Assembly: GCF_005047655.1 (NCBI RefSeq)
Contig: NZ_SUKF01000001.1
Span: forward strand, 119,394-151,393
Direction of reading: 5' to 3'
Length of the DNA stretch: 32,000 nt
DNA from: Sinimarinibacterium sp. CAU 1509
GTDB taxonomy: Bacteria; Pseudomonadota; Gammaproteobacteria; Nevskiales; Nevskiaceae
Part shown: piece by piece, positions 2,533 to 29,497 of the stretch
Layout: each line of letters opens with the position of its first letter
How positions within the stretch are numbered: position 1 is the stretch's first letter
Position numbers and translations under genes: made by a program
Notes under the pieces: model-generated
Seen by the model: the letters and a program-made list of their open reading frames with translations, nothing else
Told to the model about the DNA's origin: nothing
Databases searched by the model: none

Positions 2533-2680
2533 ATGCGGCGCGCCGCGGCGGGTGCCGTGGGTTTCCAGGCACACGGCGGATCGGTTCCGCTCGTCGGGAG
2601 CGTTCGCCGCCGGGTTTAGATCCGGCCGAGTCTGCCGCTATCGACCCTTATCGGGGTTGGTTTCGCGGCAGGGATTCGGC

Positions 2681-8343: not shown

Positions 8344-8413
8344 GCCGGGCGCGACGCTGAGCAATCTGACGGGGCGGGCATTGCCCGCCCCATTTTCTTT
8401 GAGTGAGGTTGGG

Positions 8414-9280
8414 ATGAAAAACGCATTTATCACTGGCGCCAACGTCGGGCAGGCCAATCTGCTGGTCAAGGCACTGGCACAGCGCGGCTGGCGCGTGTTT
8501 GCAGGCGTGCTGCCGGGTGCGCCGACGGACCTGAAGACTGACGGCAACATCACCGTGGTCGACCAGGACGTGTCCGACAGCGACTCTGTGGCGCAGAGCG
8601 CGGCAACGGTGACGGCGGCACTCAACGGCGAAGGTCTGGATCTGCTGATGAACGTCGCGGGCGTTGCCAATATTGGTACCGGGGTACTGGAGGCGGCTAA
8701 ATTCGAGGACGTCCAGCGCCTGTTCAACATCAATCTGTTCGGACAGTTGCGCGTGATCCAGGCGTTTCTGCCGTTGGTGCGCAAGAACGCGCCGGGCTCG
8801 CGCATTGCCAACTACAGTTCGGGTGCGATCCTGGCCAACCCGGTGGGCGCCGGCGCCTACAACATGACCAAACATGCGATTCACGGCATGACGCTGACCC
8901 TGCGGCATGAACTCGCGCCGTTCGGAATCCAAGTCACCTCGATCATTCCCGGCGGCGTATTGACCGCGATGTCGGCGAATTCCCACGCCAACACCAAGAA
9001 GACCTGGAACGAACAGCCTGAGGCAGTGCGCAAGGTTTACGAGCCGTATCTGGGGCCGGTGATGATGCAGGTACTGCCGGACATGCTGGAAAAGAGTGGC
9101 AGCACGCCGGAACAGGCGCTCGAGGGCACCTTGGCGATTCTCGACAAGAAGAAGTGGAAGCCAATGGAATACCTGGGCAAGGACGTCAAGCCGATGGGCG
9201 TGATGCGCCGACTGCTGTCGGACAGCCAGCTTGAATCGATGATGCGCATGACATTCAAGATTCCCGCGTACAAGGCCTGA
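8414..9280 (+). CDS. Short-chain dehydrogenase/reductase (SDR) family oxidoreductase
   Basis: The N-terminal nucleotide-binding motif is MKNAFITGANVGQANLL. The catalytic motif is YNMTKHA (YxxxK). NVAG and PGGV segments are also present. Start at ATG 8414. Confidence 0.85.
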   Translation: MKNAFITGANVGQANLLVKALAQRGWRVFAGVLPGAPTDLKTDGNITVVDQDVSDSDSVAQSAATVTAALNGEGLDLLMNVAGVANIGTGVLEAAKFEDVQRLFNINLFGQLRVIQAFLPLVRKNAPGSRIANYSSGAILANPVGAGAYNMTKHAIHGMTLTLRHELAPFGIQVTSIIPGGVLTAMSANSHANTKKTWNEQPEAVRKVYEPYLGPVMMQVLPDMLEKSGSTPEQALEGTLAILDKKKWKPMEYLGKDVKPMGVMRRLLSDSQLESMMRMTFKIPAYKA

Positions 9281-9290
9281 GGACGATCCC

Positions 9291-10805: not shown

Positions 10806-10825
10806 GGATTCCACAAAGCTGTAAA

Positions 10826-10857
10826 CAAAGAAGGCCACCTCGCGGTGGCCTTCTTTG
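10826..10857. terminator. Bidirectional intrinsic terminator between the two convergent aldehyde dehydrogenase genes
   Basis: A perfect 14-bp stem, CAAAGAAGGCCACC / GGTGGCCTTCTTTG, with a 4-nt loop TCGC. The A/T-rich stem bases give a U-tract on either strand. Confidence 0.7.
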
Positions 10858-10869
10858 CATCTGCTGTCG

Positions 10870-12333: not shown

Positions 12334-12472
12334 GAATTCTCTCTCCGAAATTTGGGTGCCGCGCCGGGCGCGGGCTAATCAACCGAATGTTCAAGTATAG
12401 GCCGGGGCGGAGCCGGGCAACACCCCGGCCGGTTCCGGCCGTGGGTACGCGGGATTGTTCCTGGGCGTTGCT

Positions 12473-12502
12473 TTGTGGTCTGATCTGCGATGTTCATATA
12501 AA
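12473..12502 (+). promoter_or_regulatory. Possible sigma70-type promoter for the WS/DGAT gene
   Basis: This is the only AT-rich patch in the intergenic region. It reads TTGTGG (12473-12478), an 18-nt spacer, then TATAAA (12497-12502). The SD GGAGGAGAGG and ATG 12527 follow. The match is weak and read by eye. Confidence 0.3.
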
Positions 12503-12526: not shown

Positions 12527-13981
12527 ATGAAGCGCATGAGCCCGTTGGACGCCGCATGGCTGTACGTCGATACCGTCGACACCCCCATGCATGTGGGCAG
12601 CCTGACGATCTTCTCGTTGCCGCCCAAGGCTCCGGAGCACTTTCTGCGCGACATGGTGGCGCAGCTGCGCGAGGTGCAGACTTGCGCCGCCCCGTTCAAT
12701 CTGAAGCTGCGTTCGGCACGGTTGAAGGGTGTGGTGCCAAGCTGGGTCGAGGATGACGAGATCGACCTCGATTACCACTTCAGGCATTCGGCGCTGCCGC
12801 AGCCGGGCGGTGAGCGCGAGCTCGGTGTGCTGGTGTCGCGCCTGCACTCGCACCCGATGGACTTCAATCGCCCGCTGTGGGAAATGCATGTCATCGAAGG
12901 CCTCGAGCATGGTCGCTTCGCGCTGTACATGAAGATGCACCACTCACTGGTGGATGGCGTCGGCGGCATGCGCATCCTGCAACGCATCCTGTCGGATGAC
13001 CCGAACGACCCCCATCTGCTGCCGCCATGGGCCGTCGGGTCTGGCGGCCGGCCGCGGGGGGCAGGCGGCAGTCCGAGCCTGGGGCAGTTGCAGCGCCTGA
13101 TCAGCACGGTGCGCCAGCAGGCCGCGACGGTTCCGGGGGTTTCGCGCGCATTTGTCGAAGTGCTGCGTGAGGCCGTGAGGCAGAACCTGCAGTCGTGGGC
13201 GTTGCCGTTTGCCGGACCCAAGTCGGTGCTCAATGACAAGGTTTCAGGGCAGCGCCGCTTCGCGACGCAGCATTACGCACTGGATCGCATCCGCGCAGTG
13301 GCCAAGGGCGCCGGTGTCACGGTCAATGACGTATTTCTGGGGCTCTGTTCAGCCGCGATGCGTCACTATTTGCTGGATCTCGATGCGTTGCCGGAAAAAT
13401 CGCTCACTGCCGGCGTGCCGGTGTCGGTCCGGCCCGCGGATGACGGCGAGTCGGCCAATGCGATCAGCTTCATCATCGCGCGCCTGAATACGGACATCGC
13501 CGACCCGATCGAGCGTCTGCATGCGATTCACGAGTCAGCGCTGATCGCCAAGGAGCATCTGCAGAAGCTGCCGAAGGCCGACATCAGCAACTACACCATG
13601 ATCTTCATGGCCCCGTTCATCCTGCAGCTGATTGCGGGTCTCGGCGGTCGCGCACGACCGATGTTCAATGTCACGATCTCCAATGTGCCGGGGCCGGATC
13701 GTCCCCTGTATTACAACGGCGCGCGTCTGGAGCAGATGTATCCGGTGTCGCTGCTGTCGCATGGGCAGGCGCTGAACATTACCGTCGTCAGCTACAACGG
13801 ACAGTTCAACGTCGGATTCACCGGTTGTCGCGACACCTTGCCGAGCATGCAGCGTTTAGCGGTCTACATGGGCGATGCACTGGACGAGCTGGAGGCCGTG
13901 CTGGGGCTGAATTCAGCGCCTGAGCAGCAGCGCACCAAGGCCCCGGCAAAAAAGCGCTCCAAGCGCAGCGCTACGGTCTGA
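12527..13981 (+). CDS. Wax ester synthase / acyl-CoA:diacylglycerol acyltransferase (WS/DGAT family)
   Basis: The N-terminus is MSPLDAAWLYVDTVDTPMHVGSL. The catalytic motif is HHSLVDGVGG (HHxxxDG). Also present are NDVFLGLCSAAMRHYL and ISNVPGP, all typical of the AtfA-type family. Confidence 0.9.
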   Translation: MKRMSPLDAAWLYVDTVDTPMHVGSLTIFSLPPKAPEHFLRDMVAQLREVQTCAAPFNLKLRSARLKGVVPSWVEDDEIDLDYHFRHSALPQPGGERELGVLVSRLHSHPMDFNRPLWEMHVIEGLEHGRFALYMKMHHSLVDGVGGMRILQRILSDDPNDPHLLPPWAVGSGGRPRGAGGSPSLGQLQRLISTVRQQAATVPGVSRAFVEVLREAVRQNLQSWALPFAGPKSVLNDKVSGQRRFATQHYALDRIRAVAKGAGVTVNDVFLGLCSAAMRHYLLDLDALPEKSLTAGVPVSVRPADDGESANAISFIIARLNTDIADPIERLHAIHESALIAKEHLQKLPKADISNYTMIFMAPFILQLIAGLGGRARPMFNVTISNVPGPDRPLYYNGARLEQMYPVSLLSHGQALNITVVSYNGQFNVGFTGCRDTLPSMQRLAVYMGDALDELEAVLGLNSAPEQQRTKAPAKKRSKRSATV

Positions 13982-14122: not shown

Positions 14123-14950
14123 ATGGCACCCCCCAAGAAATCAACCGCTCGCCCACGGGCCGCTGCACGGCCGGCGCCGTACAAGATCAAGGATGTATCT
14201 GAGATCACCGGTGTTTCGCGTGAGACGATTCGGTTCTATATCAATGAAGGCCTGTTGCCGCCGCCGGAGAAGTCGGCCCGTAACATGGGCTGGTACACGC
14301 AGCACCATATCGATCTGCTTCAGCTGATTCAGAAACTGCAGCGTGAACAGTTTCTGCCGCTCAAGGCGATCAAATCACTGGTTCACGGCTCCTCGGATTT
14401 TGAATTCACCACGCAGCAGGAAGGCGTGCTGGCGCAAATCCGGAATCAGCTGTCGTTTGGCAGTCGGGGTTTGCTGCCTTCGGGAAAGCCCGGTGCCATT
14501 GCGCGTGATCTGGGGCTGACGCGCAAGGAGCTCAAGGAGTTCGATGACATCGGGCTCACCTTGGCGAAGGACGCGACCGTCAGCGATATCGAGGTTGCTG
14601 AACTCTGGATCAAGCTCAAGAAAAACGGTCTCTCCGAGGCGCGCGGCTTCACGCCCAAGGATCTTGGTTATCTTGTCGAACTGGTCGACTTTGCGGTGCA
14701 GGCGGAACTGCGACTGTTTGAGCAAAAGATCCAGACGATGTCACCGGACGAAGGAACGCGCCTGTCGGAAGTCGTGATTCCGACGCTCAGTCGTGTCTTC
14801 GCGATACTGCATGAGCGGCGGCTGGGTATGTTCATCGAGCGTTACCTGGCCCAGCGCTCCGAGAGCAGGGTTCCAGCCAGGCGGGTCGCAAGTGCGGCAG
14901 CCCGCGGGAGCGCCGATGGCAGGGCATCGACGCGCCGTTCCAAGGTCTGA
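14123..14950 (+). CDS. MerR-family transcriptional regulator with a long C-terminal domain
   Basis: The HTH is YKIKDVSEITGVSRETIRFYINEGLLPPPEKSARNMGWYTQHHIDLLQLIQKLQ. Both N- and C-terminal tails are basic and Ala/Arg-rich. Confidence 0.8.
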   Translation: MAPPKKSTARPRAAARPAPYKIKDVSEITGVSRETIRFYINEGLLPPPEKSARNMGWYTQHHIDLLQLIQKLQREQFLPLKAIKSLVHGSSDFEFTTQQEGVLAQIRNQLSFGSRGLLPSGKPGAIARDLGLTRKELKEFDDIGLTLAKDATVSDIEVAELWIKLKKNGLSEARGFTPKDLGYLVELVDFAVQAELRLFEQKIQTMSPDEGTRLSEVVIPTLSRVFAILHERRLGMFIERYLAQRSESRVPARRVASAAARGSADGRASTRRSKV

Positions 14951-14995: not shown

Positions 14996-15829
14996 ATGCG
15001 TGCGAATGCCATCAGATGGCTGTTGATGGTGGCTGCAGCCGTGAGCATGCCGGCATACATTGCCAGTCAACTTCACTGGGGGCAGGCGCTGCGTCCGGCG
15101 CCGTACCACTATGGCGAGTCCGATGCGGATTGTCCGGCGGTCAGGCCGGCATTGGCCGGAACTGCTCCGGCGGAACTTCTGCCCGGATACACCGTGCGGA
15201 CACCGAGCAACTACGATCCGCGCCAGGCGCATCCGCTCCTGGTTGTTTTTAGTCCGGCAGGCATCGGGCGCGGAATGAGAGAGCGTATCAGTGGGCTGAC
15301 GAATGTCGCTACGGCGCAAGGATTGATCGTCGCGTATGTCGATAGCCTGAAACTGAGCCGCAAGGCGGTGGGGCGCTTCGCGCAGGTGGTGTCAGCGATC
15401 GCGGCACAGTGGTGTGTGGATCCGAGCCGCATCACGGTAGCGGGCCATTCTGATGGCGGCACCGTTGCCGAACTGCTCGCTTTGCTCGATGCCGGGGCGG
15501 GAAGCGTTCCAGCGGCGATTGTGGCCAGCGGTGCGGGTCTGATCGAGTCGGACTTTGCCGAATTTCGCTGCGTCCAGCCGGTCGACGTCACCCTTTTTCA
15601 CGGCCGTGACGACCACCACTTTCCGGGGTACGGGGCCTCGGCGGCGCGGGGCTGGGCAGACTGTCTGGGGTGCGCAGCGACGCCGGCTCTCGATTCGGAC
15701 GGCTGCCTTGCCTATTCGGGCTGCCGAGGGCAGCTGCGCTATTGCGAGCTTCCAGTGGGCCATTGGCGATGGCCGCCAATCAACGATGCGATCGTGGCCA
15801 AAGCCGCTGCACGTGCGGCGATTGACTGA
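14996..15829 (+). CDS. Secreted alpha/beta-hydrolase-fold esterase (PHB-depolymerase/LpqC-like esterase family, tentative)
   Basis: The signal-like N-terminus is MRANAIRWLLMVAAAVSMPAYIA. PLLVVFSPAG is followed by the nucleophile elbow ITVAGHSDGG (GxSxG). The subfamily assignment is from memory only. Confidence 0.6.
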   Translation: MRANAIRWLLMVAAAVSMPAYIASQLHWGQALRPAPYHYGESDADCPAVRPALAGTAPAELLPGYTVRTPSNYDPRQAHPLLVVFSPAGIGRGMRERISGLTNVATAQGLIVAYVDSLKLSRKAVGRFAQVVSAIAAQWCVDPSRITVAGHSDGGTVAELLALLDAGAGSVPAAIVASGAGLIESDFAEFRCVQPVDVTLFHGRDDHHFPGYGASAARGWADCLGCAATPALDSDGCLAYSGCRGQLRYCELPVGHWRWPPINDAIVAKAAARAAID

Positions 15830-15920
15830 AGGCGGGGCGGTACTGGCCCGCAGCACTTGATCGGGTCAGGGCTTCGGGTCCGCATGCGTTGACGAGTGGC
15901 CGTGTCTGGCCTTGTGCGTA

Positions 15921-15934
15921 GTGAAACTATTCAC
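15921..15934. promoter_or_regulatory. Small palindrome GTGAA-ACTA-TTCAC in the leader or promoter region upstream of xmoC
   Basis: 5-bp perfect inverted arms with a 4-bp spacer, about 125 nt upstream of the preferred xmoC start. It could arise by chance. Confidence 0.2.
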
Positions 15935-16057
15935 TATGGACATGCTTAAAAACCTGTGCAAAACTTCGGGTACATGGCTCCGTTCAGAAGAGCCAGGATG
16001 CCGTGGGGCTGTGTGATGGCTGACTCGAACCTGCGATATTTGGAAGGAGATCTACAA

Positions 16058-16876
16058 GTGACCACTTCAGTCGAAGCATCGGACGACGCTCACGACAGAG
16101 CGCTGCGTGCACCCTGGAAAGCGTTTTTTGGCATGTTGGCGTTTGCTGCGGCTGTCTTCGCCGCCTACCGCATCTATCAGCATGAAACTGCGTTTACGTT
16201 CGGATTGGACTACTTCAATCCGGAGTTCGCGACGTATTGGATGAGTGTGCTGTACTCCGAGCTCGCAATCGAAGTGCTCCTCGGTATCGCAATCGTCGGT
16301 TACCTCTGGATCACGCGCGATCGCAATCTCGACAAGATCACGCCCTCGGAAGAACTGCGACGCTATCTGGTGCTGATGAGTCAGCTCCTGATGTTCGGAG
16401 CAATTGCCTATGTGGTGACTTCGATCTACACCGAGTCCGATGCGGCCTGGCATCAGGTTACGGTGCGCGATACCGACTTCACTCCGACCCACATTGGGCT
16501 GTTCTACTTTGGCGTTCCTGTTTTCATCCTCAGTGTGCTGACTGCATTCGTCTACGCACGCACGCGCATCCCGGCGTTTGCGAAGCGGGTGTCGCTGCCG
16601 TTCGCGCTGCTGGTTGCCGGTCCGGTGATGATCATGCCGAACCTGGGCTTCAACGAGTGGGGGCACACGTTCTTCTACGCTGAGGAACTGTTTGCAGCGC
16701 CGATTCATTGGGGCTTCGTGCTGCTGGGTTGGGCCACCTTTGCGGCGGGCGGTTTGCTGGTGCAGATCCTGACCCGCGTCGTGCAGCTGACCCAGGTTGT
16801 TAGCTCGGCTGACGTTCAGCAGACCAACATCAAAAGTGAAGCTGCAGCCAATGCGGAGCTGAACGCGGCGGCCTGA
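16058..16876 (+). CDS. xmoC: Copper membrane monooxygenase subunit C (PmoC/AmoC family)
   Basis: FGLDYFNPEFATYWMSVLYSE and LWITRDRNL are family-typical. TESDAAWHQVTVRDTDFTPTH gives the D-x3-H-x12-H pattern. NEWGHTFFYAEELFAAPIHWGF gives the N-x3-H-x13-H pattern. Start preferred at GTG 16058, behind the strong SD GGAAGGAGA. In-frame alternatives are ATG 16016 and the track start at 15956. Confidence 0.9.
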   Translation: MTTSVEASDDAHDRALRAPWKAFFGMLAFAAAVFAAYRIYQHETAFTFGLDYFNPEFATYWMSVLYSELAIEVLLGIAIVGYLWITRDRNLDKITPSEELRRYLVLMSQLLMFGAIAYVVTSIYTESDAAWHQVTVRDTDFTPTHIGLFYFGVPVFILSVLTAFVYARTRIPAFAKRVSLPFALLVAGPVMIMPNLGFNEWGHTFFYAEELFAAPIHWGFVLLGWATFAAGGLLVQILTRVVQLTQVVSSADVQQTNIKSEAAANAELNAAA

Positions 16877-16904
16877 TCCAGGCCACGATCGCAGCGTTTG
16901 ACTC

Positions 16905-16930
16905 GGGGAGCCGCCTGCGTGCGGCTCCCC
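16905..16930 (+). other. GC-rich stem-loop in the xmoC-xmoA spacer (possible attenuator or mRNA-stability element)
   Basis: GGGGAGCCGC-CTGCGT-GCGGCTCCCC forms a perfect 10-bp stem. It is followed by CGCTTTATTC, then the SD GGGAG and ATG 16951. Confidence 0.5.
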
Positions 16931-16950
16931 CGCTTTATTCGGGAGCATCA

Positions 16951-17703
16951 ATGTCTCAGGAACTAACCGTATCGGCGGTGCGCAGCACCGCCGAGCAGCA
17001 CCGCGTGCATGTTCAAGTCGACTTGCTGGCGATTCCGCTGGTCGTCCTATTGTTTGCGGCCGTATTCAGTTTCCAGTTTGCGCTGCTGGTCGGTGACTGG
17101 GATTACTGGATCGACTGGCGCGATCGTCGCTGGTGGCCGCTGGTTACGCCGTTGGCATTGACCATCCTGCCGGCAGTCTTCAGCTACTTCCTGTGGGAGC
17201 GTCTGCGTCTACCGTTGGCGGCGACACTGACGATCCTCGCGCTGACCGCTGCAGCGTGGGTCAGTCGGTACCTGAACTTTCATCTCTTTGCGAACTTTCC
17301 GATGAACATGGTGTGGCCATCGGCATACATCGGTTTGGGTCTGATCGTGGACTGCATTCTGCTGCTGACCGGCAGCTTCTTCTGGACCGGGTTATTGGGC
17401 GGCTTTGCCTTCGCGGTGCTGCTCTACCCGATGAACTGGCCGCTGCTCGCGCCGTTTCAGGTGCCGCTCGAATTGCATGGGACGATGCTGACGGTGTCCG
17501 ATCTGATGGGCTTCGAGTACGTCCGCACAGCGATTCCGGAATACGTCCGCATCATCGAGCAATCCACGCTGCGTACCTTCGGCGAGGCAGTGACACCGTT
17601 GACCGCCGTGTTTGCCGGCTTCCTCAACATCATGAACTTCTGGTTCTGGACCTGGATCGGCTATCTCGGCAGCAAGGCCCTGTGGATCCGAAAGATCGTC
17701 TGA
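16951..17703 (+). CDS. xmoA: Copper membrane monooxygenase subunit A (PmoA/AmoA family)
   Basis: Family blocks are LLVGDWDYWIDWRDRRWWPLVTP and GFEYVRTAIPEYVRIIEQSTLRTFG. The protein is multi-TM and 250 aa long. The SD GGGAG lies 5 nt upstream of the start. Confidence 0.9.
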   Translation: MSQELTVSAVRSTAEQHRVHVQVDLLAIPLVVLLFAAVFSFQFALLVGDWDYWIDWRDRRWWPLVTPLALTILPAVFSYFLWERLRLPLAATLTILALTAAAWVSRYLNFHLFANFPMNMVWPSAYIGLGLIVDCILLLTGSFFWTGLLGGFAFAVLLYPMNWPLLAPFQVPLELHGTMLTVSDLMGFEYVRTAIPEYVRIIEQSTLRTFGEAVTPLTAVFAGFLNIMNFWFWTWIGYLGSKALWIRKIV

Positions 17704-17714
17704 GGAGAACAACA

Positions 17715-18956
17715 ATGATGAACCGACTGATCTCTTGGGCCTGTGCAGCACTTATCGTCCTGTCGAGTTTTACCGTCGCAATCGAGTCCGCCGAGGCGCA
17801 TGGCGAACGCGCCCAGATGCCGCAGTTACGCATGCGCTCCGTGCATTGGTTCGACGTCAACGTGTCGACAGTCGATATGCAGATCAACGACATCGTCAAG
17901 GTCACCGGCAGCTTCATGCCGTCGAAGTATTGGCCGGAGCATGTCCAGTCAATTGAAAAGACTGCCTTCCTGAACATCGGGGTGCCTGGGCCGTCATTTG
18001 TGCGGCTGGACTCGCGCGTCAATGGAGTGCCGATGATTCGATCGACGGCCTTCATGAAAGGTGAGCGGTACAACTTTGAAGTGACGCTCAAGGCGCGCAA
18101 GGTCGGACGTTATCACGTGCATCCGGTGATCAACGTCGAGGGAACGGGACCGATCATCGGGCCCGGACTGTGGGTTGACGTGGGCGGAGACGAGGCGGCA
18201 TTTGAAAACAGCGCGACGACCTTGCTCGGCCAGACCATCGACCTGGAAACCTACGGACTCCGCAATGCGGCGTTCTGGTCCGCGCTGTGGTTCGTGATCG
18301 GTCTGGCATGGTTTGCGTACTGGTTGTCGAAGTGTCCGATCGTGGTGCCGCGCTTCAAGCGGGTTGATGAGCTGGGCGTCGTCAATGCGGACAAGATCAT
18401 CACAACGACGGATCGCCGCGTCGGGTTTGTGTTTCTGGTGCTGACGCTGTCGCTGGTCACCGGCTCCTACATGTATACGCAGGAGAAATGGCCGATCACC
18501 ACGCCGTTGCAAACCGGCAAAGTCGAAGTGCCGCCGCTTGAGGCTGAGAGCATGCCGCTGAAGGTGCGGTTGACGGATGCACGCTACCGTATTCCGGGTC
18601 GCAGCTTCCGCATGGAGCTGGAAGTGACGAACTCTGGCGACAGTCCGGTCACGGTGGGTGAGTTTGCTGCGGGTAATCTGCGTTTCATCAACAGCGCGGT
18701 CTTGCAGGTGACGCCCAAGGATGAGGACGACTTGATTGCGGCAGATGCACTTCGCGTCGAGGGAGGCTCGGTTGCGCCGGGCGAAACCCGCACAATTGTC
18801 GTCTACGCCGACGATGCGCTGTGGGAGACTCAACGCATGACGACGATGATTGCGTCCCCGGATGCGTTGGTGGCCGGGCTTCTGTTCTTCTTCGATGCCA
18901 ATGGCGAGCGCTATCCTGTCGAAGTGGGTGGAATGATGATTCCGGAGTTCGTTTGA
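17715..18956 (+). CDS. xmoB: Copper membrane monooxygenase subunit B (PmoB/AmoB family)
   Basis: Start at ATG 17715 behind the SD GAGGAG. The signal peptide MMNRLISWACAALIVLSSFTVAIESAEA is followed by HGERAQMPQLRMRSVHWFDV. GRYHVHPVINVEGTGPIIGPG is present. Two central TM helices sit between two beta-rich domains. The 607-aa track ORF starting at 17133 is an out-of-gene extension over xmoA. Confidence 0.9.
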   Translation: MMNRLISWACAALIVLSSFTVAIESAEAHGERAQMPQLRMRSVHWFDVNVSTVDMQINDIVKVTGSFMPSKYWPEHVQSIEKTAFLNIGVPGPSFVRLDSRVNGVPMIRSTAFMKGERYNFEVTLKARKVGRYHVHPVINVEGTGPIIGPGLWVDVGGDEAAFENSATTLLGQTIDLETYGLRNAAFWSALWFVIGLAWFAYWLSKCPIVVPRFKRVDELGVVNADKIITTTDRRVGFVFLVLTLSLVTGSYMYTQEKWPITTPLQTGKVEVPPLEAESMPLKVRLTDARYRIPGRSFRMELEVTNSGDSPVTVGEFAAGNLRFINSAVLQVTPKDEDDLIAADALRVEGGSVAPGETRTIVVYADDALWETQRMTTMIASPDALVAGLLFFFDANGERYPVEVGGMMIPEFV

Positions 18957-19561
18957 TGACACGTCTGATGGGCCTGATGCTGGTTCTGCTCATGGCCGTG
19001 CAGTCCGGACCGACGGCAGCGCACGGCGGGGTCTCGGTCGAGGACGATGTCTGCATCATGCGCATCGGGCCATACCGGGCACATTTCACGGGCTATCAGC
19101 CGGAGTATCGTGCGACGCAGGAATTCTGCGAGGACATTCCGGTGGTGGCCAAGGCGATCATCGTGCTGGATTTCATCGACAACGTCCTGCGCGGTATGAG
19201 CGTCGAGTTCAATCTGCTGCGTGATACGGATGGATTGGGAGCGGCGGCACGCTTCGACCAGCTCGGCTCGATGCAGCAGATTCGTGAACGCAGTTTGTTC
19301 AACGTACCCGCAGCGACCTATCCGCGTGGAACGATTACCCTGGAGCCGACGCTGGATCAGTCGGGCTGGTATATCGGAGTTCTCAGTGCTACGGACCCAG
19401 AGACCGGTGGCACCCTGCACTCGGTGTTTCCATTCCGAGTCGGCGTGCGCAGCTACTGGCGTTACGGTGTTGCGCTGTTGGTGATCCTGGCGCTGTCAGT
19501 GCTGTTGTACCGTGTCAGCGGTCGAAAACGTGCTGGCGGCGCCTCGACCACCGCTGCGTGA
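18956..19561 (+). CDS. Membrane-anchored periplasmic protein in the PmoD/AmoD position. It has a predicted N-terminal His after signal cleavage and is a possible copper protein.
   Basis: ATG 18956 shares its A with the xmoB TGA (TGATG). The signal peptide MTRLMGLMLVLLMAVQSGPTAA is followed by HGGVSVEDDVCIMRIG. The soluble domain is about 150 aa. The C-terminal TM is YWRYGVALLVILALSVLLYRV, followed by a basic tail. The architecture matches PmoD/AmoD and YcnI-type proteins. I could not verify sequence homology. Confidence 0.7.
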   Translation: MTRLMGLMLVLLMAVQSGPTAAHGGVSVEDDVCIMRIGPYRAHFTGYQPEYRATQEFCEDIPVVAKAIIVLDFIDNVLRGMSVEFNLLRDTDGLGAAARFDQLGSMQQIRERSLFNVPAATYPRGTITLEPTLDQSGWYIGVLSATDPETGGTLHSVFPFRVGVRSYWRYGVALLVILALSVLLYRVSGRKRAGGASTTAA

Positions 19562-19603
19562 ATGCGGCTTCCGATGCTCAATAGAAGGCAGGCATAACCG
19601 CTG

Positions 19604-21187
19604 ATGGGCCGAGCGGAGTCCATGCTGCCCGTAGTCTGGATCACCAGCGTCGCAGCGCTGATGATCGCAGGGGTTGCAGCGCTGGTTGTGTTCGGGCCAA
19701 GTGCGCCACGATCCGTCGGTGGCGACACCGTGCCTGAGGATGCATGTCCGCCCGGGACGCCGGCCCACTGGCGTGACGCACAGACGATCGACGGCGTCGA
19801 GATCGAGGCCGATCCGTCCTGTGAGCCGGATGATCCGGCGGTTGTCGCTGCTGTGGTCAAGGGCACAAACCGTGCGGTGCAGGCGTTGATGGAAACCCGT
19901 CTCGCACGCGACGCGGTGATCAAGCGTAACGACCGCGACGGTGACGGTGATCCGGACGACATCGAGATCAAGCTCGAGGTCACCGAGCTCAACGGATTTT
20001 CACCGAACCTGGATGTGCCGTCGCTGCGTTACCCGATCGCTCCCGGCATCACGCCGGGCCTATGGGTGTTCTCGCCGAAAGTGCGCGGCATGTCGACGAC
20101 GAACTTCCTGAGCAATGACCCGCAGCCGTTGCTGCGTCTGCCGGCTCCGGTGATCCGAGTGGAGCAGGGCGACACGGTCACGATCACCCTGGAAAACACG
20201 CACTACTTTCCGCACACGATTCACCTGCACGGTGTCGATCATCCGTTCGTTCAGGCCGATGGCCAGGGGAATGACGGCGTGCCGATGATTAGCGAAATGG
20301 CGACATTGCCGGGCCAGCGACACAGTTACCGCTTTACGCCGCGCCAGACAGGGACCTTTTTCTACCACTGCCATGTACAGCCACAGGCGCACATCCTGAT
20401 GGGGCTGGCCGGCATGATCGTGGTTGAGGAGAACCGTCCCGACAACTGGTTGCAGACCTTCAACGTCGGTGCCGGCCGTGTGCGACATCGTTCGGTCGCT
20501 TCGCGCGAGCAATACGACCGTGAGTACGATCTGCACTACCAGGACATGGATCGCGAGCTGCACAACCTGATCCAGCATACCAATGACATTCGCTGGACGG
20601 CCAAGGCGATGAATCGCGATTACAAAATCGCCGAGCGGAGCGCTGAGTATCATCTGCTGAACGGGCATTCGTTTCCCTATACCCTGCGTGACTCCATGGT
20701 CGTCGTCGCGCCGGACGAGAACGTGAAGCTTCGCGTGATCAATACCGGGGCCGAGCCGATCTATCTTCATCCTCACGGGCACAAGCCGACGGTGACGCAC
20801 TACGACGGCGTCAGACTTTCGCAGTCGATCACACGTGATGTCTTCGAGATCGGGCCCGCGCAGCGTGCCGAGTTTGACCTGTCGACCGTAAACGACGGGC
20901 TGCATAGCTACGGTGAGGGCGCGTGGTTCATGCACGATCATCGAGAGCCCGGCATCACCACCGACGGCATCAGCCCCGGGGGTGACATCAGCCTCGTTGT
21001 CTACGAGACCTATTTGAATGCTGATGGCATGCCGAAGACTTACGGTAGCCTGGCGACGTTCTTCAATCCCGCGTACTACCGCGGGGAGATTCCGGTCTGG
21101 GCGGAGATGGCGCCGGATCTGTTCGGAGACCCCAACGTCCCCCAGGCCATGTGTACTTCCAATCCCAAACGGGACACTCAAAAATGA
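19604..21187 (+). CDS. Multicopper oxidase, apparently two-domain type with the type-1 site in the first cupredoxin domain. It has an N-terminal membrane anchor.
   Basis: The TM anchor is MLPVVWITSVAALMIAGVAALVVFG. Copper motifs are HTIHLHG, FFYHCHVQPQAHILMGLAGM, IYLHPHGH and WFMHDH, giving four HxH pairs and one Cys. An Asp-rich segment, NDRDGDGDPDD, lies in the N-terminal extension. Start is 19604 or ATG 19622. Confidence 0.85.
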   Translation: MGRAESMLPVVWITSVAALMIAGVAALVVFGPSAPRSVGGDTVPEDACPPGTPAHWRDAQTIDGVEIEADPSCEPDDPAVVAAVVKGTNRAVQALMETRLARDAVIKRNDRDGDGDPDDIEIKLEVTELNGFSPNLDVPSLRYPIAPGITPGLWVFSPKVRGMSTTNFLSNDPQPLLRLPAPVIRVEQGDTVTITLENTHYFPHTIHLHGVDHPFVQADGQGNDGVPMISEMATLPGQRHSYRFTPRQTGTFFYHCHVQPQAHILMGLAGMIVVEENRPDNWLQTFNVGAGRVRHRSVASREQYDREYDLHYQDMDRELHNLIQHTNDIRWTAKAMNRDYKIAERSAEYHLLNGHSFPYTLRDSMVVVAPDENVKLRVINTGAEPIYLHPHGHKPTVTHYDGVRLSQSITRDVFEIGPAQRAEFDLSTVNDGLHSYGEGAWFMHDHREPGITTDGISPGGDISLVVYETYLNADGMPKTYGSLATFFNPAYYRGEIPVWAEMAPDLFGDPNVPQAMCTSNPKRDTQK

Positions 21188-21630
21188 AAATTGGCAAGTT
21201 TGGATGGGTATTGCCCATCGTGATGTTCGGCCAGCTGGCTGCTGCCGGCGATGTGTTTGCAGAAGATGCCGCCAATGCTCATGCGCATCACATGCACATG
21301 GATCGCGGTGGAGACGACAGTCGCGTCCCGACGCCGGCAGGCATGTCGATCATGGTGACACAGCCGGCCGATGGTGCGCAGCTCGATGCCGACGCAGCGA
21401 TTCTGGTGCAGGTCGAGACCACCGGCATGGATGCCTCTGGCGATCACTGGCACCTGTATGTTGATGGTGAGCTCGTTGCGATGGTCGGTGGAGGCCGTAC
21501 GAAATATCAAATCGAGCCCGCGACCCTGGCGCCTGGTCGTCACGAGCTAAAAGTCACGATCTCCAACGCCAGTCATCACGAATACGCCGTGGAGCAGCGG
21601 CTGACGGTTTCGATCGGCAACGCGCCTTAA
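21184..21630 (+). CDS. Secreted His/Met-rich small protein, DUF4399-like (tentative), a putative periplasmic metal (copper) binder
   Basis: The ATGA start/stop overlap with the MCO gene lies at 21184-21187. The signal peptide is MKIGKFGWVLPIVMFGQLAAAGDVFA. Next comes NAHAHHMHMD. The remaining pattern is QPADGAQL...SGDHWHLYVDGELV...LAPGRHELKVTISNASHHEY, which matches my memory of the DUF4399 pattern (P-DGA...HHHL-ID...L-pG-H-L). Confidence 0.7.
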   Translation: MKIGKFGWVLPIVMFGQLAAAGDVFAEDAANAHAHHMHMDRGGDDSRVPTPAGMSIMVTQPADGAQLDADAAILVQVETTGMDASGDHWHLYVDGELVAMVGGGRTKYQIEPATLAPGRHELKVTISNASHHEYAVEQRLTVSIGNAP

Positions 21631-21650
21631 TCTCGCCGCGGATTTCGCAC

Positions 21651-22247
21651 GTGCGTTCGCATTCGCTCCGCCGGGTTCACTTCAGGCTCGCTCTGCTGCT
21701 TGCTGTTGCGGTGCTGTCGTCGTCGCCGATGGTGTGGAGTGCCGATGCGGGTCAGCCCGCGCACGATGGGCCAGGGCATCGCATGATCTGGGACGCCAGC
21801 GGCATGGTCATGGGCGAGAACCAGGGCGATGAACTGCCGCGTGGCTGTGCACAAATCAGTGGTGATGTCGAGATTACCGTGCATGTTGGCCGCCGTTATG
21901 CGCCCGCGGGCTACGTGCTCGGTTACAGTCAGTACGAATGGCGGGTGCCCAAGTGCAGTCGGCTGCATGTCACTCTGATCAACGAAGACCAGGTGCGGCA
22001 TATGTGGATGCTGCACGGGCTGCCGAAATATCTGTACCACGAAGGCATGTTCCATCTCGAGGTCGAGGGTGAGCGGCGCATGACCGGCACCTTCATTGTG
22101 CCCAGCGATGACCGTACCTATTTCGTGCACTGTGACATTGCGCAGCACACGGAGAAAGGTTTGATCGCGCAGCTCAAGGTTGGTCGCGGTGACGGCGATC
22201 TGCCCGGTGTTCCGGGAATCTCCAAACCGCTGTTCCGCGAACGCTAG
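21651..22247 (+). CDS. Secreted cupredoxin-like (type-1 copper-like) protein with Leu at the usual axial Met position
   Basis: The GTG start is at 21651. The signal-like N-terminus is MRSHSLRRVHFRLALLLAVAVLSSSPMVWSA. LHVTLINEDQVRHMWMLHG supplies the upstream His. YFVHCDIAQHTEKGLIAQLKV gives C-x4-H-x4-L where cupredoxins normally have C-x(2-4)-H-x(2-4)-M. Confidence 0.7.
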   Translation: MRSHSLRRVHFRLALLLAVAVLSSSPMVWSADAGQPAHDGPGHRMIWDASGMVMGENQGDELPRGCAQISGDVEITVHVGRRYAPAGYVLGYSQYEWRVPKCSRLHVTLINEDQVRHMWMLHGLPKYLYHEGMFHLEVEGERRMTGTFIVPSDDRTYFVHCDIAQHTEKGLIAQLKVGRGDGDLPGVPGISKPLFRER

Positions 22248-22550
22248 CGCTGCTGCGGGTCAGGTCGCCACGCGTCGCCAGCGCGAGAATTTTCACCCTG
22301 GGGTTCGATATGCGATCGTATCGTCTCGCGACGAAGCAGCGCGCGATACGCATCTCTGCGGCAGCCCATGACGCTGCAGCAAGATTGCCGCCTTGAGCAG
22401 CGCTTGGGTCGTGGTGATTTTCCGCGGACAAGATCGGCGCGATCCATTGGGCCCACCGGAGCAGGCAGCCACCGCGGCGTGACAGTGGATGCTCAGCGTG
22501 CATCCCCATCAGTGGTCTGCGGGATGTGGTGACGATGCTGCCGTCGCAAC

Positions 22551-22582
22551 AAAAAAGGCGGAGCTATTGCTCCGCCTTTTTG
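22551..22582. terminator. Bidirectional intrinsic terminator (3' of the GMC oxidoreductase gene; also the first terminator downstream of the CuMMO operon)
   Basis: In AAAAAAGGCGGAGC-TATT-GCTCCGCCTTTTTG, an 8-bp GC core stem is flanked by an A-run and a T-run. It lies 20 nt beyond the stop of the minus-strand GMC gene. Confidence 0.75.
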
Positions 22583-22601
22583 CGTACACCGGAATCCCGC
22601 A

Positions 22602-24230
22602 TCAAGCAGCCTGCGACATGTCCATGGCTGCGGGCTGGTTCTGTTGCAGCATCATCCGGGCGGCCATCTCGCCGATCACCATTGCCGGCGCGTTGGTATT
22701 GCCGCCGATCAGGGTCGGCATGATCGAGGCGTCGGCAACGCGCAGGCCTTCGATGCCATGCACGCGCAACTGCGCGTCGACAACCGCCATCGCATCCGGT
22801 CCCATCTTGCAGGTGCCGACCGGGTGATAGATGGTCTCGGCACGCTTGCGGATGTCGGCGAGAATCGCTTCGTCGCTTTGCGCTGCCGAACCGGGTTCGG
22901 TTTCGCCGCCATTGGTGGTGGCGAATGCGGGCGATGCAAAGATGCGACGGGCCAGCCGAACCGACGCGATCAGTGCGGCGCGATCGTCCGGATGTTCCAG
23001 GTAGTTCGGCTGAATCAGCGGTGCGGCCATCGGATCGGCGCTCTTGAGGCCGATGTAGCCGCGACTCTTCGGACGCAACTGGCAAACATGCAGGGTGCAG
23101 CCGTAACCCGGGACCAGCTTGCGACCATGATCCTTGAGGAAGCTCGGCAGGAAATGGAACTGGATGTCAGGGCGCTCGGAGTCCTTTGACAGCTTGGCGA
23201 AGCCACCGCCTTCAGCGACATTGCTGGCAAGCATGCCGCGGCGTCCGAAGATATAGCGGAACAGTGCGGCGATTGCGCGGGGTACAAAGGAAAGTGCCAG
23301 ACCGAATGCGCGCTTGCTGCGATCGCGGATCATCACCGTCATGTCGAGATGATCCTGCAGGTTCTGTCCGACACCCGGAAGCTCGTGCACCACCTTGATG
23401 CCGTGCTGTTCGAGTTCTTTCCTGGGGCCGATTCCGGACAGCATCAGCAGTTGCGGCGAATTCACTGCGCCGCCGCACAACACCACTTCACGCTGTGCGC
23501 TCAGATGTCGCTTTTGCCCGTTTTGGACAACGACTTCAATTCCGACCGCACGCTTACCTTCCATCAGCACGCGCGTGGCATGTGCACCGGTCAGCACCGT
23601 CAGGTTCGGTCGGGATCTCGCGTTTTCAAGGAACGCCCGGGCGCTGCTCCAGCGGCGTCCATCCTTCTGCGTGACCTGATAAAGGCCGACGCCTTCCTGT
23701 TCCACGCCGTTGAAGTCGGGGTTGTACGGCAGCCCGGCCTGTTTGGCGGCTTCGATGAAGACCTGCGACAACGGGTTGGGGTCGCGCACATCGGCGACGT
23801 TCAGCGGGCCGCCGGTGCCATGTGAGCGCGACGGTCCGCGCTCGTTGTTCTCGTGCGCCTTGAACAGCGGAAGCAGATCATCGTGGCTCCAGCCGGGATT
23901 GCCCTGATTGGCCCAGTCGTCATAGTCGCGGGCATGTCCGCGGATGTAGACCATCGCATTGATCGAACTGCTGCCACCCAGGGTCTTGCCGCGAGGCCAG
24001 AACAGTTTGCGCTGATCAAGCTGTGCCTGTGGTTCGGTGTCGAAGCACCAGTTATAGGTCTTGCTGCCGATCAGGCCGATCACGCCCAGTGGGGTGTGGA
24101 TCAAGGCGCTGGAATCCGGCGGGCCGGCTTCGATCAGGCACACGCGATGTCGTGGGTTCGCGCTGAGGCGATCCGCCAGAACGCAACCGGCCGAGCCGGC
24201 ACCAACGATAACGTAGTCGAATTCATTCAC
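22602..24230 (-). CDS. GMC-family FAD oxidoreductase (choline/alcohol dehydrogenase; AlkJ-like)
   Basis: The N-terminus is MNEFDYVIVGAGSAGCVLADRLSANP. Also present are GKTLGGSSSINAMVY and the C-terminal block HPVGTCKMG...VHGIEGLRVADASIMP. The SD GGAGGA lies upstream of the start. Confidence 0.9.
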   Translation of the reverse strand: MNEFDYVIVGAGSAGCVLADRLSANPRHRVCLIEAGPPDSSALIHTPLGVIGLIGSKTYNWCFDTEPQAQLDQRKLFWPRGKTLGGSSSINAMVYIRGHARDYDDWANQGNPGWSHDDLLPLFKAHENNERGPSRSHGTGGPLNVADVRDPNPLSQVFIEAAKQAGLPYNPDFNGVEQEGVGLYQVTQKDGRRWSSARAFLENARSRPNLTVLTGAHATRVLMEGKRAVGIEVVVQNGQKRHLSAQREVVLCGGAVNSPQLLMLSGIGPRKELEQHGIKVVHELPGVGQNLQDHLDMTVMIRDRSKRAFGLALSFVPRAIAALFRYIFGRRGMLASNVAEGGGFAKLSKDSERPDIQFHFLPSFLKDHGRKLVPGYGCTLHVCQLRPKSRGYIGLKSADPMAAPLIQPNYLEHPDDRAALIASVRLARRIFASPAFATTNGGETEPGSAAQSDEAILADIRKRAETIYHPVGTCKMGPDAMAVVDAQLRVHGIEGLRVADASIMPTLIGGNTNAPAMVIGEMAARMMLQQNQPAAMDMSQAA

Positions 24231-26769: not shown

Positions 26770-29388
26770 ATGCGGGGAGAGCAAGCAGTGCACGCAGACA
26801 GCCGAAGCAAGTTCGCGCAGTTGTTCGTACGCGTTACCGAGCCAATGATCTTCAATCGTCGCTGGGCGACGTTGCTGTTTCTTGGGTTGGCGACGTTGTT
26901 CTTTGGCTATCACGCCACGCAGCTGCGCATGGATACCGGTTTCGACAAGCAGCTGCCGCTGGGGCATCCCTACATGGGCATCTACCACCAGTATCAGGGC
27001 GAGTTTGGCGGCGCCAATATCGTGCTGCTGGCGGTGATACAGAAGCAAGGTGACATCTATACCGCCGATTTCATGACCTCGCTGCGTCAGGCCACTGATG
27101 CGGTGTATTTCACCCCGGGCGTCGATCGCTCGCGCGTCAGCTCGCTGTTCACGCCGAACGTGCGCTACATGGAAGTGGTGGAGTCCGGCTTCCAGGGCGG
27201 CAACGTGGTCCCGGCCGACTTCAAGCCAACGCCGGAAATGCTGGCCAAGGTGCGTTCCAACGTCGCCAAGTCCGATATCCGCGGGCGCCTGGTCGCCAAT
27301 GATCAGTCCGCCGCGATGGTGGTGTCCGAGCTGCTGGAAAAGGATCCGGTCACCGGAGTCAAGCTCGACTACATCGATACGGCTCACCGTCTGGAACAGG
27401 TGCGCAATCGGTTCATTTCGCCCACCAAAGTCGAGTACCTTGCCAAGACTGATGTCGGTCCCTTCAAGAAGGGCGATATCGTCAAGACCGAATACAAGGA
27501 CACGCGGAACTGGGCGTTCCCCATCATGCACGTGACCGTCGACTCCGGCGAGACCGACGTTGCTCCGGTGCGGTTCCGCGGCTACCAGCTCGACGTACGC
27601 ACGGTTGAGAATCCGGACTACAACCCGAATATCGATATCGCAATCATCGGCTTCGCCAAGGCCGTCGGTGATATCGCGGACAGTGCGGTCGAAGTCTTCA
27701 GCTTCTTTGGCCTGACCCTGATTCTGGTGTGGTTGCTGCTGTGGCAGTACTGCGGCTCGCCCTCCATTGCGCTTCTGCCTCTGATTTGCGGCGTGCTCGC
27801 GGTGGTATGGGAACTCGGCATGCTGCAGCTGTTCGGTTTCGCGCTCGATCCTTTTGCGGTGCTGATGCCCTTCATTGTCCTCGCGATCAGTACGTCGCAC
27901 GGCATCCAGATCACCAACTTCTGGCTTAATGAAGTGGCCGACAATGGCTTGTCGAGCTTCGAGGCTTCGCGTGCGACCTATCGACGGTTGGTGATTCCCG
28001 GCATTTCCGCCCTGCTCACCAACTTCGTCGGTTTCGGCACGATTCTGCTGATCCCGATCGGGATCATCCAGGAGATGGCAATCAACGCCATGTTCGGCCT
28101 GATGGCGATCGTGCTGTGCAAGAAAGTCCTGCTGCCGTGCCTGCTGTCGTTCGCGCCGATGAAGAATCCGGCCAAATTCCGCGAGCATCAGAAGAGCCGC
28201 GACCGTTTCTTCGCACCGATCTGGCGCACGCTGTCGGTCATTACCAAACGTCCGGTGGCTGCTGTGGTTCTGCTGGCAGCGGTTGGCTTGTGGGGTTGGG
28301 CCGAGTACGTCTCGCAGGATCTGAAGATCGGTGAGCTGCATGAAGGTGTGCCGGAGCTGCGTCCAAACGCACGCTACAACCAGGACTCACGCACGATCAC
28401 CGGCGCCTTCTCGATCGGTGTGGATGTCATCAAGCTGATTTCCGAGTCACATGCCGACGGTTGTATTGATCACGCCGTCATGGACAAGATCGATGAGTTC
28501 GCCTGGCGGATGGAAAACGTCGAGGGCGTGCAGTCGACCATGTCGCTGGCAAAAACTTCGCGTGCCGTTTTCAACGCCTACAACGAGAACAATCCGAAGT
28601 GGTTCGTGTTGCCGCGTGAATCGGGCGCCTTGGTGGTGACGGTGCAGCCGTTCCCGAGTTCAACCGGCCTGCTCAACGAAGATTGCAGCGCGATTCCGAT
28701 CCTGGTGTATTCCAAGGACCACAAGGCAGAGACCATCGATCGCATCGTCTTCGCCGCGCAGTCGTTTATCGACGCGCAACCTGCAGATGCCCCGGTGACG
28801 TTCCGTCTGGCAACGGGCAACGTCGGCGTGATGGCTGCGGCTAACGATGTGATCAAGGAAACCGAATCCAAGGTGTTGCTGTGGCTGTTCCTCGGCATCG
28901 GTGTTTGCGTGCTGATGTCTTTCCGCAGCTTCGCTGGACTTGTTTGCGTGCTGGTACCGCTGGCACTGGTTTCGGTGCTGTCCTATGCGGTCATGGTTTA
29001 TCTGCAGATCGGCATCAAGGTGTCGAACCTCGCTGTTGCGGCGTTTGCTGCAGGTATCGGTGTTGACTACGGCATCTACATTTACAGCGTGCTCGAAGAA
29101 TGCGTGCTGAACCGCGGCATGCCGCTGCGCAAGGCCTATGAGGAAACGCTGCATCAGACCGGCAAGGCGGTGATTGTGACCGCGCTGACGCTGGCGGCCA
29201 GTGTCTGCACCTGGTTCTTCTCGGGTCTTCAGTTCCAGATCGACATGGGCATTCTGCTGACGATCATGTTCATCGCCAATGCGGTCGCCGCAGTGGTGCT
29301 GCTGCCGGCGTTCGCAGCATTTCTGCTGCGGGCCAAGCCGACGCAGGCCGAGGTGGAGCCGATGGATTCGGCAGCAGCGCCGATCTGA
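26770..29388 (+). CDS. RND-superfamily transporter with MMPL-type domains (COG1033-like exporter of hydrophobic compounds)
   Basis: The protein is 872 aa with two clusters of about 5-6 TM helices separated by large periplasmic loops. GVDYGIYIYSVLEE and GKAVIVTALTLAASV are typical of this family. It is co-located with DUF1329 and DUF1302, its usual partners. Confidence 0.85.
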   Translation: MRGEQAVHADSRSKFAQLFVRVTEPMIFNRRWATLLFLGLATLFFGYHATQLRMDTGFDKQLPLGHPYMGIYHQYQGEFGGANIVLLAVIQKQGDIYTADFMTSLRQATDAVYFTPGVDRSRVSSLFTPNVRYMEVVESGFQGGNVVPADFKPTPEMLAKVRSNVAKSDIRGRLVANDQSAAMVVSELLEKDPVTGVKLDYIDTAHRLEQVRNRFISPTKVEYLAKTDVGPFKKGDIVKTEYKDTRNWAFPIMHVTVDSGETDVAPVRFRGYQLDVRTVENPDYNPNIDIAIIGFAKAVGDIADSAVEVFSFFGLTLILVWLLLWQYCGSPSIALLPLICGVLAVVWELGMLQLFGFALDPFAVLMPFIVLAISTSHGIQITNFWLNEVADNGLSSFEASRATYRRLVIPGISALLTNFVGFGTILLIPIGIIQEMAINAMFGLMAIVLCKKVLLPCLLSFAPMKNPAKFREHQKSRDRFFAPIWRTLSVITKRPVAAVVLLAAVGLWGWAEYVSQDLKIGELHEGVPELRPNARYNQDSRTITGAFSIGVDVIKLISESHADGCIDHAVMDKIDEFAWRMENVEGVQSTMSLAKTSRAVFNAYNENNPKWFVLPRESGALVVTVQPFPSSTGLLNEDCSAIPILVYSKDHKAETIDRIVFAAQSFIDAQPADAPVTFRLATGNVGVMAAANDVIKETESKVLLWLFLGIGVCVLMSFRSFAGLVCVLVPLALVSVLSYAVMVYLQIGIKVSNLAVAAFAAGIGVDYGIYIYSVLEECVLNRGMPLRKAYEETLHQTGKAVIVTALTLAASVCTWFFSGLQFQIDMGILLTIMFIANAVAAVVLLPAFAAFLLRAKPTQAEVEPMDSAAAPI

Positions 29389-29497
29389 AGCAGAAGAAGA
29401 TTCGATACCAGCGGCGCCACCACAGGTGTGGTGGCCGCCGGACAGGGAAGATAGAAGCAAAAAGCTCGCTAGGGCTTTCCACGACAGGAGAAGAAAA

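Follow-up and report, generated by a model that had tools for sequence, protein, structure and literature searches.

Isolated copper membrane monooxygenases (CuMMOs) lose most of their activity, and how these enzymes obtain copper and electrons is the question on which the gene pair analysed here bears. Their accessory protein PmoD has been found only in CuMMO-encoding genomes, mainly those of methane and ammonia oxidisers, and PmoDs of the Cx9H class bind copper in vitro without forming CuA (Fisher 2018, PMC6189053). Adjoining genes for PmoD and a multicopper oxidase (MCO) have already been reported (Fisher 2018, PMC6189053; Kruse 2019, PMC6688271). PmoD networks were coloured by the proximity of MCO genes, the Cx8M class being 'commonly near multicopper oxidases' (Fisher 2018, PMC6189053), and the pmoD homologue MCA2130 of M. 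capsulatus adjoins an MCO gene, as in a similar pair of Methylacidiphilum (Kruse 2019, PMC6688271). In copper-free cells expressing soluble methane monooxygenase (sMMO), relative to cells expressing the particulate enzyme (pMMO), the MCO gene MCA2129 and the pmoD homologue MCA2130 are listed at -2.35 and -3.94, an expression lower by 2.4-fold and 3.9-fold (Larsen and Karlsen supplement, PMC4831470). Here we analyse a stretch of 32,000 nucleotides from Sinimarinibacterium sp. CAU 1509 (the window), in which the CuMMO genes xmoC, xmoA and xmoB are followed by four further open reading frames (ORFs), all on the + strand: a pmoD homologue (ORF1 or xmoD, 18956-19561), an MCO gene (19604-21187), ORF3 (21184-21630) and a cupredoxin gene (ORF4, 21651-22247). 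A first-pass annotation took the four for one dedicated module and knew of no comparable set. The latter statement was too strong in view of the PmoD-MCO adjacency and the copper response just cited.

Judged by synteny, the 3.3 kb from ORF1 to ORF4 are two evolutionary units, namely xmoD with xmoCAB and an autonomous cassette of MCO, ORF3 and ORF4. On the same grounds, the MCO and the cupredoxin are an apparently obligate couple, widespread in gammaproteobacterial oxidisers of ammonia, methane and alkanes or alkenes. The cassette is, as far as gene neighbourhoods indicate, a genuine partner of CuMMOs that also occurs without them; it is not dedicated to them, and not altogether new.

The census behind these statements is a metagenome scan with an MCO alignment, which yielded 80 loci at 48-60% identity. 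An ORF4-type cupredoxin lies downstream of the MCO in 64 of the 65 loci whose downstream sequence was long enough. A PmoD homologue, mostly of the Cx9H class, lies upstream of the MCO in 43 of 66 loci (65%), and xmoB is directly upstream in 12 of 53 (23%). The cassette-linked CuMMOs belong to at least 10 lineages, with pairwise XmoA identities of 35-65%. The gene-neighbourhood check proposed in the first pass was thus borne out for the MCO-cupredoxin pair, which stands beside the CuMMO operons of at least 10 lineages, including amoCAB of N. oceani. A scan of GTDB with XmoB found two close relatives only, so that it is unusable as a CuMMO-centred census.

The gene order of the window recurs elsewhere. 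A metagenome-assembled genome (MAG) of Nevskiales has MerR-xmoCAB-pmoD-MCO as in the window, up to the contig end. Two metagenome lineages (L012/13 and L014/15) have the exact order xmoCAB-pmoD-MCO-ORF3-ORF4, and when L012 and L014 are compared with the window, identities are 32-36% for XmoB, 65-71% for the MCO and 64-75% for ORF4. In N. oceani ATCC 19707, the MCO-cupredoxin pair is located one gene upstream of amoCABD, and its MCO and cupredoxin are 55% and 61% identical to those of the window. The pair is better conserved between guilds (55-61%, window versus N. oceani) than the monooxygenase (37-45%). In Haliea sp. ETY-M, which oxidises ethylene and has a CuMMO, the MCO and cupredoxin entries are two accession numbers apart.

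Other loci separate what the window joins. In the metagenome locus L010, the trio of MCO, ORF3 and ORF4 is convergent with xmoCAB-pmoD, a FadL-like gene and a TetR gene lying between them. The Aquabacterium locus L002 has xmoCAB-pmoD-copC-copD(cytochrome c) and no trio; CopC and CopD domains, present there, were absent from the window in Pfam searches. Even with the cassette at another place (L010) or missing (L002), PmoD remains beside xmoCAB; PmoD therefore goes with xmoCAB, and ORF3 with the MCO and ORF4. The pair is divergent from xmoCAB-pmoD in a Methylophagaceae MAG, and Methylomarinovum and Methylohalobius have pmoD-MCO-cupredoxin, with no pmoCAB in the 8-10 kb of flank examined. A single dedicated four-gene module is accordingly not what the loci present, since ORF1 travels with xmoCAB and the trio is also found on the opposite strand or with no CuMMO nearby. 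Pairs with no nearby CuMMO are a warning against assuming a dedicated role. Genetically tractable methanotrophs appear to carry the pair, which would open its role to knockout and biochemistry.

Several side observations were made on these loci. One metagenome contig (L066, 450-3744) has three tandem copies of xmoC, and then xmoA-xmoB-pmoD-MCO-cupredoxin. In L079, L082 and L084 (about 6800-12500), xmoA-xmoB-pmoD-MCO-cupredoxin is present and tblastn finds no xmoC in about 6.8 kb upstream. In N. oceani (L096, 16836-17870), amoD is followed by Noc2499 and Noc2498, which are small and have no Pfam matches; ammonium or hydroxylamine induces Noc2500 (amoD) and Noc2499 by 9- to 22-fold, without inducing amoCAB (PMC3772326). 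In Oceanococcus (L003/L004, 10740-12332), transposase genes of insertion sequence (IS) type come directly after the cupredoxin gene and are followed by genes for a GMC oxidoreductase, a P450, a ferredoxin and an AraC regulator, a context that would fit a neighbouring hydroxylase operon having been rearranged or replaced. In the census, genes for a VTT/DedA-like protein, for heme-copper oxidase subunits and for RND pumps also recur near the pair. In the literature, the coverage of which was incomplete, no description was found of the cupredoxin partner, of ORF3, of the pair in N. oceani or of such a set fused behind an xmoCAB of the hydrocarbon type, nor of the cassette in connection with Noc_2505/2506, the Haliea emo cluster or Sinimarinibacterium.

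The layout from xmoC to ORF4 is compatible with a single seven-gene transcript, since the genes overlap or are closely spaced and no terminator lies between 18900 and 22551. The monooxygenase genes are xmoC (16016-16876, the longest ORF starting from GTG 15956; Pfam AmoC, E 6.5e-80), xmoA (16951-17703; Pfam AMO, E 2.4e-78) and xmoB (17715-18956; Pfam Monooxygenase_B, E 1.4e-127), and the best PDB matches of XmoB are PmoB chains of pMMO (E 2e-111), followed by AmoB of ammonia monooxygenase. The stop codon TGA of xmoB (18954-18956) overlaps the ATG of xmoD (18956-18958). Between the stop of xmoD (19559-19561) and the ATG of the MCO gene (19604), there is a 42-nt gap with no stable hairpin inside. 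The MCO gene and ORF3 share an ATGA overlap (21184-21187), and a 20-nt gap separates the stop of ORF3 (21628-21630) from the GTG of ORF4 (21651). The four ORFs are co-oriented, each has homologues, and every junction coordinate was as first annotated.

The MCO start admits an alternative. The NCBI model (P0001) has 521 residues, with 100% identity over 99% of the query, versus 527 for the ORF. If translation began at the second in-frame Met (ATG 19622), the 6-residue difference would be explained and the pmoD-MCO gap would be 60 nt. Because of the differing annotated start, an exact-sequence look-up of the MCO of the window found no entry.

The transcript would end at a terminator at 22552-22581 with 13-nt perfect arms (AAAAAGGCGGAGC and GCTCCGCCTTTTT), the loop tatt, and A5 and T5 on its flanks (dG -27.5 kcal/mol, z -6.2). 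Because it lies about 20 nt past the stop of a GMC oxidoreductase gene, which is convergent with the operon, and 300 nt past that of ORF4, this intrinsic terminator is taken as bidirectional. The earlier statement that no terminator precedes it stood in that it is the sole strong hairpin in 18900-22650. It did not stand for the whole seven-gene unit, inside which the xmoC-xmoA spacer has a + strand stem-loop (16905-16930), with a GC-rich 10-bp stem containing 9 G-C pairs and then a weak U tract (CGCTTTATTC). The spacer region folds at -31.3 kcal/mol with a z of just -1.6, and the stem-loop may act within the operon as a partial terminator or in the processing or stability of the mRNA. In this genome, transcription from the xmo promoter probably continues into the cassette.

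A sigma-70 promoter scan of 15000-23000 found no sites, such a scan being uninformative in DNA this rich in GC. The Rfam scan gave solely a sub-threshold Leu_leader match produced by the terminator, and PADLOC matched no defence systems. The segment of about 300 nt between the ORF4 stop and the terminator (22248-22550) has no convincing gene, as the ORFs at 22180-22371 (+) and 22174-22509 (-) are unconserved.

ORF1 is, by homology, a true PmoD/AmoD homologue and part of an xmoCABD operon. It has no Pfam match and matches the PmoD structure 6cpd over residues 31-163 (phmmer E 4e-10); a local hidden Markov model of PmoD also recovers N. oceani AmoD at 1e-42. Its topology is a signal peptide, a periplasmic domain and a C-terminal transmembrane (TM) helix (hydrophobic stretch YGVALLVILALSVLLY). 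The N-terminus reads MTRLMGLMLVLLMAVQSGPTAA, after which come the predicted cleavage and HGG. We aligned 54 sequences, namely the window ORF1 and PmoD homologues from the fetched loci, a majority of them, not all, adjacent to an MCO. In 53 of the 54, the family cysteines line up with C33 and C58, and a His stands right after the predicted signal-peptide site (A-HGG) in 38. The first-pass placement of ORF1 at the PmoD position, with a predicted N-terminal His, is thereby confirmed. The CuA-forming Cx7MxH motif is not found in ORF1; its CIMRIGPYRAH is of the Cx9H class and has Arg at the Met position.

The second gene encodes a membrane-anchored two-domain MCO, matched by Pfam Cu-oxidase_3, Cu-oxidase_2 and Cu-oxidase, as the first reading of the gene had it, and has 2920 homologues. 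The best PDB matches are 3g5w, a two-domain MCO of N. europaea (E 2.5e-27), and 2zwn, in two matched stretches. There are two cupredoxin domains, eight trinuclear-site His, and the type-1 His/Cys/His/Met in domain 1. The candidate ligands H204, H207, H209, H255, C256, H257, H263, M266, H389, H391, H444 and H446 are invariant across 37 homologues, and the type-1 site and the trinuclear ligand set are, as predicted from the alignment, complete. An N-terminal extension (19604-20140, residues 1-175), with a domain of about 130 residues, is conserved and contains a TM helix. Among the same 37 homologues, it has invariant C48 and C73 and a calcium-site-like DxDxDGDPD motif at residues 110-118. The extension has no Pfam match and is absent in solved two-domain MCOs.

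The partner of the MCO, ORF4, is by fold and ligands a type-1 cupredoxin with predicted copper binding, secreted and of a single domain resembling an MCO domain, in agreement with its first assignment. It has 1177 homologues. Its AlphaFold2 (AF2) model (predicted local distance difference test score, pLDDT, 88) matches cupredoxin domains at Foldseek E of about 1e-6, among them the CuA domain of nitrous oxide reductase, two-domain laccases, auracyanin and pseudoazurin. H117, M120, H122, H160, C161, D162, H166, C66 and C102 are invariant, and position 171 is Leu in the subclade of the window and Met in most homologues. The motifs RH-MWM-LHG and H-C-D-x3-H-x4-L follow the canonical MCO signature H-C-x-x3-H-x4-(M/L). 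Two of the four trinuclear-site His are kept (H122 and H160), and the other two are replaced by the invariant Met120 and Asp162. From this motif pattern and a marginal Pfam match, ORF4 looks like a degenerate MCO domain, and the set of H122, H160, M120 and D162 suggests a second, possibly interfacial, metal site. The Cu(I)-chaperone domain CusF (PF11604, E 1e-17) is fused N-terminally in some ORF4 homologues (P0171, P0216 and P0233). Most homologues carry a C-terminal TM anchor, and the window ORF4 does not.

ORF3 encodes a secreted immunoglobulin (Ig)/fibronectin type III (FnIII)-like protein with a His-rich N-terminal tail and a conserved GDHWH motif, assigned from its homologues and its AF2 model (pLDDT 81), which has a beta sandwich behind the disordered His-rich tail. 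The tail motif AHAHHMHM is present, so that the small HAHHMHM-bearing protein noted earlier is real, and homologues exist: a word search of 5.8 billion proteins gave 9, and a profile search gave 983. Many of the profile relatives are small lipoproteins sharing G-x-H-W-H and a later His, and others are giant repeat proteins; H88, H90 and H131 are invariant in the profile-derived family. The match to DUF4399 is 24.4 bits, under the gathering cutoff of 28. A relation to CopC was considered and set aside, as Foldseek gave generic FnIII/Ig matches with CopC 12th, which was not taken as homology. In the 80-locus metagenome census, ORF3 was not detected outside the subclade of the window. The copper hallmarks first ascribed to all four genes hold in part. 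Each of the four products is secreted or tethered to the membrane, and three of them have the family or fold of copper proteins, whereas ORF3 is generic Ig-like and limited to one subclade.

Taken as a whole, the explanation that we tentatively favour, at somewhat less than an even chance, is that of two units, with an O2-reducing periplasmic copper oxidase system accompanying the CuMMO. The MCO-cupredoxin pair would constitute this system, membrane-tethered in the periplasm, the cupredoxin would be the electron-entry or copper-presenting partner of the MCO, and the most likely MCO substrate would be Cu(I). With PmoD, the module would set the periplasmic copper redox state and the copper supply needed by the CuMMO. 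The gene structures, the homologies, the conserved ligands, the folds and the synteny counts are direct results; from them we infer this substrate, a physical partnership of the two proteins, co-transcription with xmoCAB and a link to CuMMO metallation. Periplasmic copper oxidation and handling is the most likely role on the sequence evidence.

A bolder version can be conceived, in which the pair, usually with PmoD, would be a conserved CuMMO partner system of ammonia, methane and alkane oxidisers that loads or re-oxidises copper sites or couples to the respiratory chain, and in which the half-set of the cupredoxin (two His with Met and Asp) would form a new interfacial copper site with the oxidase. 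We consider this version improbable.

Several observations weigh against the favoured explanation. In L010 and L098, the cassette is a transcription unit apart from xmoCAB. In Oceanococcus atlanticus, an ENA MAG and a Panacagrimonas MAG, neither a CuMMO nor PmoD was found within the 8-10 kb flanks of the trio, and the neighbours of the CuMMO-free trios are genes for a thioesterase, a hydrolase, a GMC oxidoreductase, a P450 alkane hydroxylase with ferredoxin and AraC, or RND proteins. The RND pumps adjacent to cassettes were rejected as copper-specific because Cus/Czc scores were no better than multidrug scores. The MerR-family regulator upstream of xmoC (14123-14950, +; Pfam MerR_1, E 5e-22) was likewise rejected as CueR, as matches to CueR-type models span the helix-turn-helix only and are far under the cutoff. 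On the MCO itself, the CopA model TIGR01480 gives 68.8 bits (cutoff 479) and the CueO model NF008205 gives 37 bits (cutoff 525), each on one domain only, and the sequence read by eye has no obvious twin-arginine motif or Met-rich insert of the CueO/PcoA type. The profile-profile comparison of ORF4 and MCO is not significant (E 0.042), the ORF3 fold is generic by Foldseek, and MCA2129 is no more than a candidate member of this MCO family.

The ligands of ORF4 and the company it keeps bear on an electron relay, one of the roles first put forward, in which the cupredoxin and/or PmoD would carry respiratory-chain electrons to the copper sites of the CuMMO, with the MCO as a safety valve or as the re-oxidant of the carrier. 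A role for PmoD in electron transfer, as a partner protein, has been proposed (PMC13058606). ORF4 has the full type-1 electron-transfer ligand set, the pair is repeatedly beside CuMMO operons, and heme-copper oxidase subunits I and II follow it in 6-8 of the 80 loci. However, an O2-reducing MCO would compete with the monooxygenase for electrons, the PmoD of the window is without the CuA-forming Cx7MxH, and the trio also occurs with no CuMMO nearby. A type-1 site with an axial Leu is expected to have a high potential, and the axial Leu in the subclade of the window thus predicts a site better suited to accepting electrons than to donating them. Since MCOs act as electron sinks, a role as electron donor is the less likely one. 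A relay to the CuMMO appears doubtful to us, as an O2-reducing sink fits copper oxidation better.

General periplasmic copper tolerance, the second alternative, would assign the cassette no CuMMO-specific role and explain its linkage by high copper flux and the shuffling of islands. It would accommodate the variable arrangement (downstream, upstream, divergent and convergent), the variable pmoD-MCO spacer, the IS elements flanking the Oceanococcus cassette, and the loci with no CuMMO or PmoD nearby, some of which have RND pumps. But direct adjacency to a rare enzyme family in 23% of loci, spread over at least 10 CuMMO lineages, exceeds by far the level expected from drift, and 65% of loci have PmoD, which is reported only from CuMMO genomes. 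The named source organisms are nearly all in known CuMMO guilds, and the neighbouring RND pumps are not clearly of the metal type. Generic tolerance is thus hard to reconcile with the enrichment beside a rare enzyme family and with PmoD, although the P450-linked loci keep it alive, and we regard it as unlikely.

Least probable by some distance is a non-copper substrate of the MCO (hydroxylamine from ammonia co-oxidation, Mn(II) or Fe(II), or phenolic or hydroquinone by-products), for which one can cite a Methylomarinovum homologue (P0048) labelled 'manganese oxidase' by its source, an archaeal MCO that oxidises NH2OH (PMC13058606), and the location of window-subclade trios in hydrocarbon-catabolic islands, be the hydroxylase there a CuMMO or a P450, but no single organic or nitrogen substrate is common to ammonia, methane and alkane oxidisers and P450-only contexts, the label is an annotation, and the CusF fusions and PmoD point to copper.

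The surroundings of the operon in the window contain genes for a short-chain dehydrogenase/reductase, two aldehyde dehydrogenases, a wax-ester synthase, a GMC oxidoreductase, a TetR regulator and DUF1329 proteins, and the xmo locus looks like it sits in an island of hydrocarbon and lipid metabolism. The GMC-family (AlkJ-like) oxidoreductase gene (22602-24230, -; Pfam GMC_oxred_N and GMC_oxred_C) keeps its synteny with the cassette or xmo in L002, L003, L007 and L010 (64-70% identity), and the MerR regulator is also upstream of xmoC in L001 (83% identity) and L010 (48%). Two DUF1329 genes (6790-8343 and 29279-30865), the wax-ester synthase (WS/DGAT) gene (12527-13981) and a gene for a Ser/Thr kinase-HDOD-GAF protein (2483-5050) jointly flank the xmo locus.

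Compared with known systems, ORF1 is like PmoD/AmoD (amoD, amoE, orf4/orf5; 6cpd) in topology, in its two cysteines and in its position directly after subunit B. It shares the cupredoxin-like periplasmic domain of 6cpd, with homology at the above E of 4e-10. It differs in having Cx9H rather than the CuA-forming Cx7MxH, and in sitting in a CuMMO operon of the hydrocarbon type. The MCO is like 3g5w and mgLAC (2zwn) in its core of two cupredoxin domains, the spacing HCH-x5-H-x2-M and the type-1 site in domain 1. On the other hand, it adds an N-terminal segment of about 175 residues and an interdomain insert of about 65 residues, and it is encoded with an obligate cupredoxin partner.

With the CueO/PcoA/CopA systems (and PcoC/CopC, PcoE and CusF), the cassette shares a proposed logic, that of a periplasmic MCO with small His- or Met-rich copper-binding partners, and the CusF of those systems is the domain fused to some ORF4 homologues. 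The CueO, PcoA and CopA enzymes themselves are three-domain, Tat-exported and Met-rich, and their family models are far under cutoff on the MCO of the window.

The PmoD-MCO pairs of methanotrophs (M. capsulatus and Methylacidiphilum) likewise have the PmoD homologue immediately upstream of the MCO, and in M. capsulatus both MCA2130 and MCA2129 are expressed more in copper-replete, pMMO-expressing cells. However, these pairs lie away from pmoCAB, whereas the set of the window, like that of 12 of the 53 metagenome loci, is joined behind xmoCAB. A cupredoxin partner and ORF3 are not described for them, and the PmoD class beside MCOs of the window type is mainly Cx9H, versus Cx8M in the literature. 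Finally, the extended pmo and amo operons (pmoCAB-pmoD-copCD and amoCABED-copCD) likewise have copper accessory genes chained behind subunit B, and in the window an MCO, an Ig-like protein and a cupredoxin stand in place of CopC and CopD.

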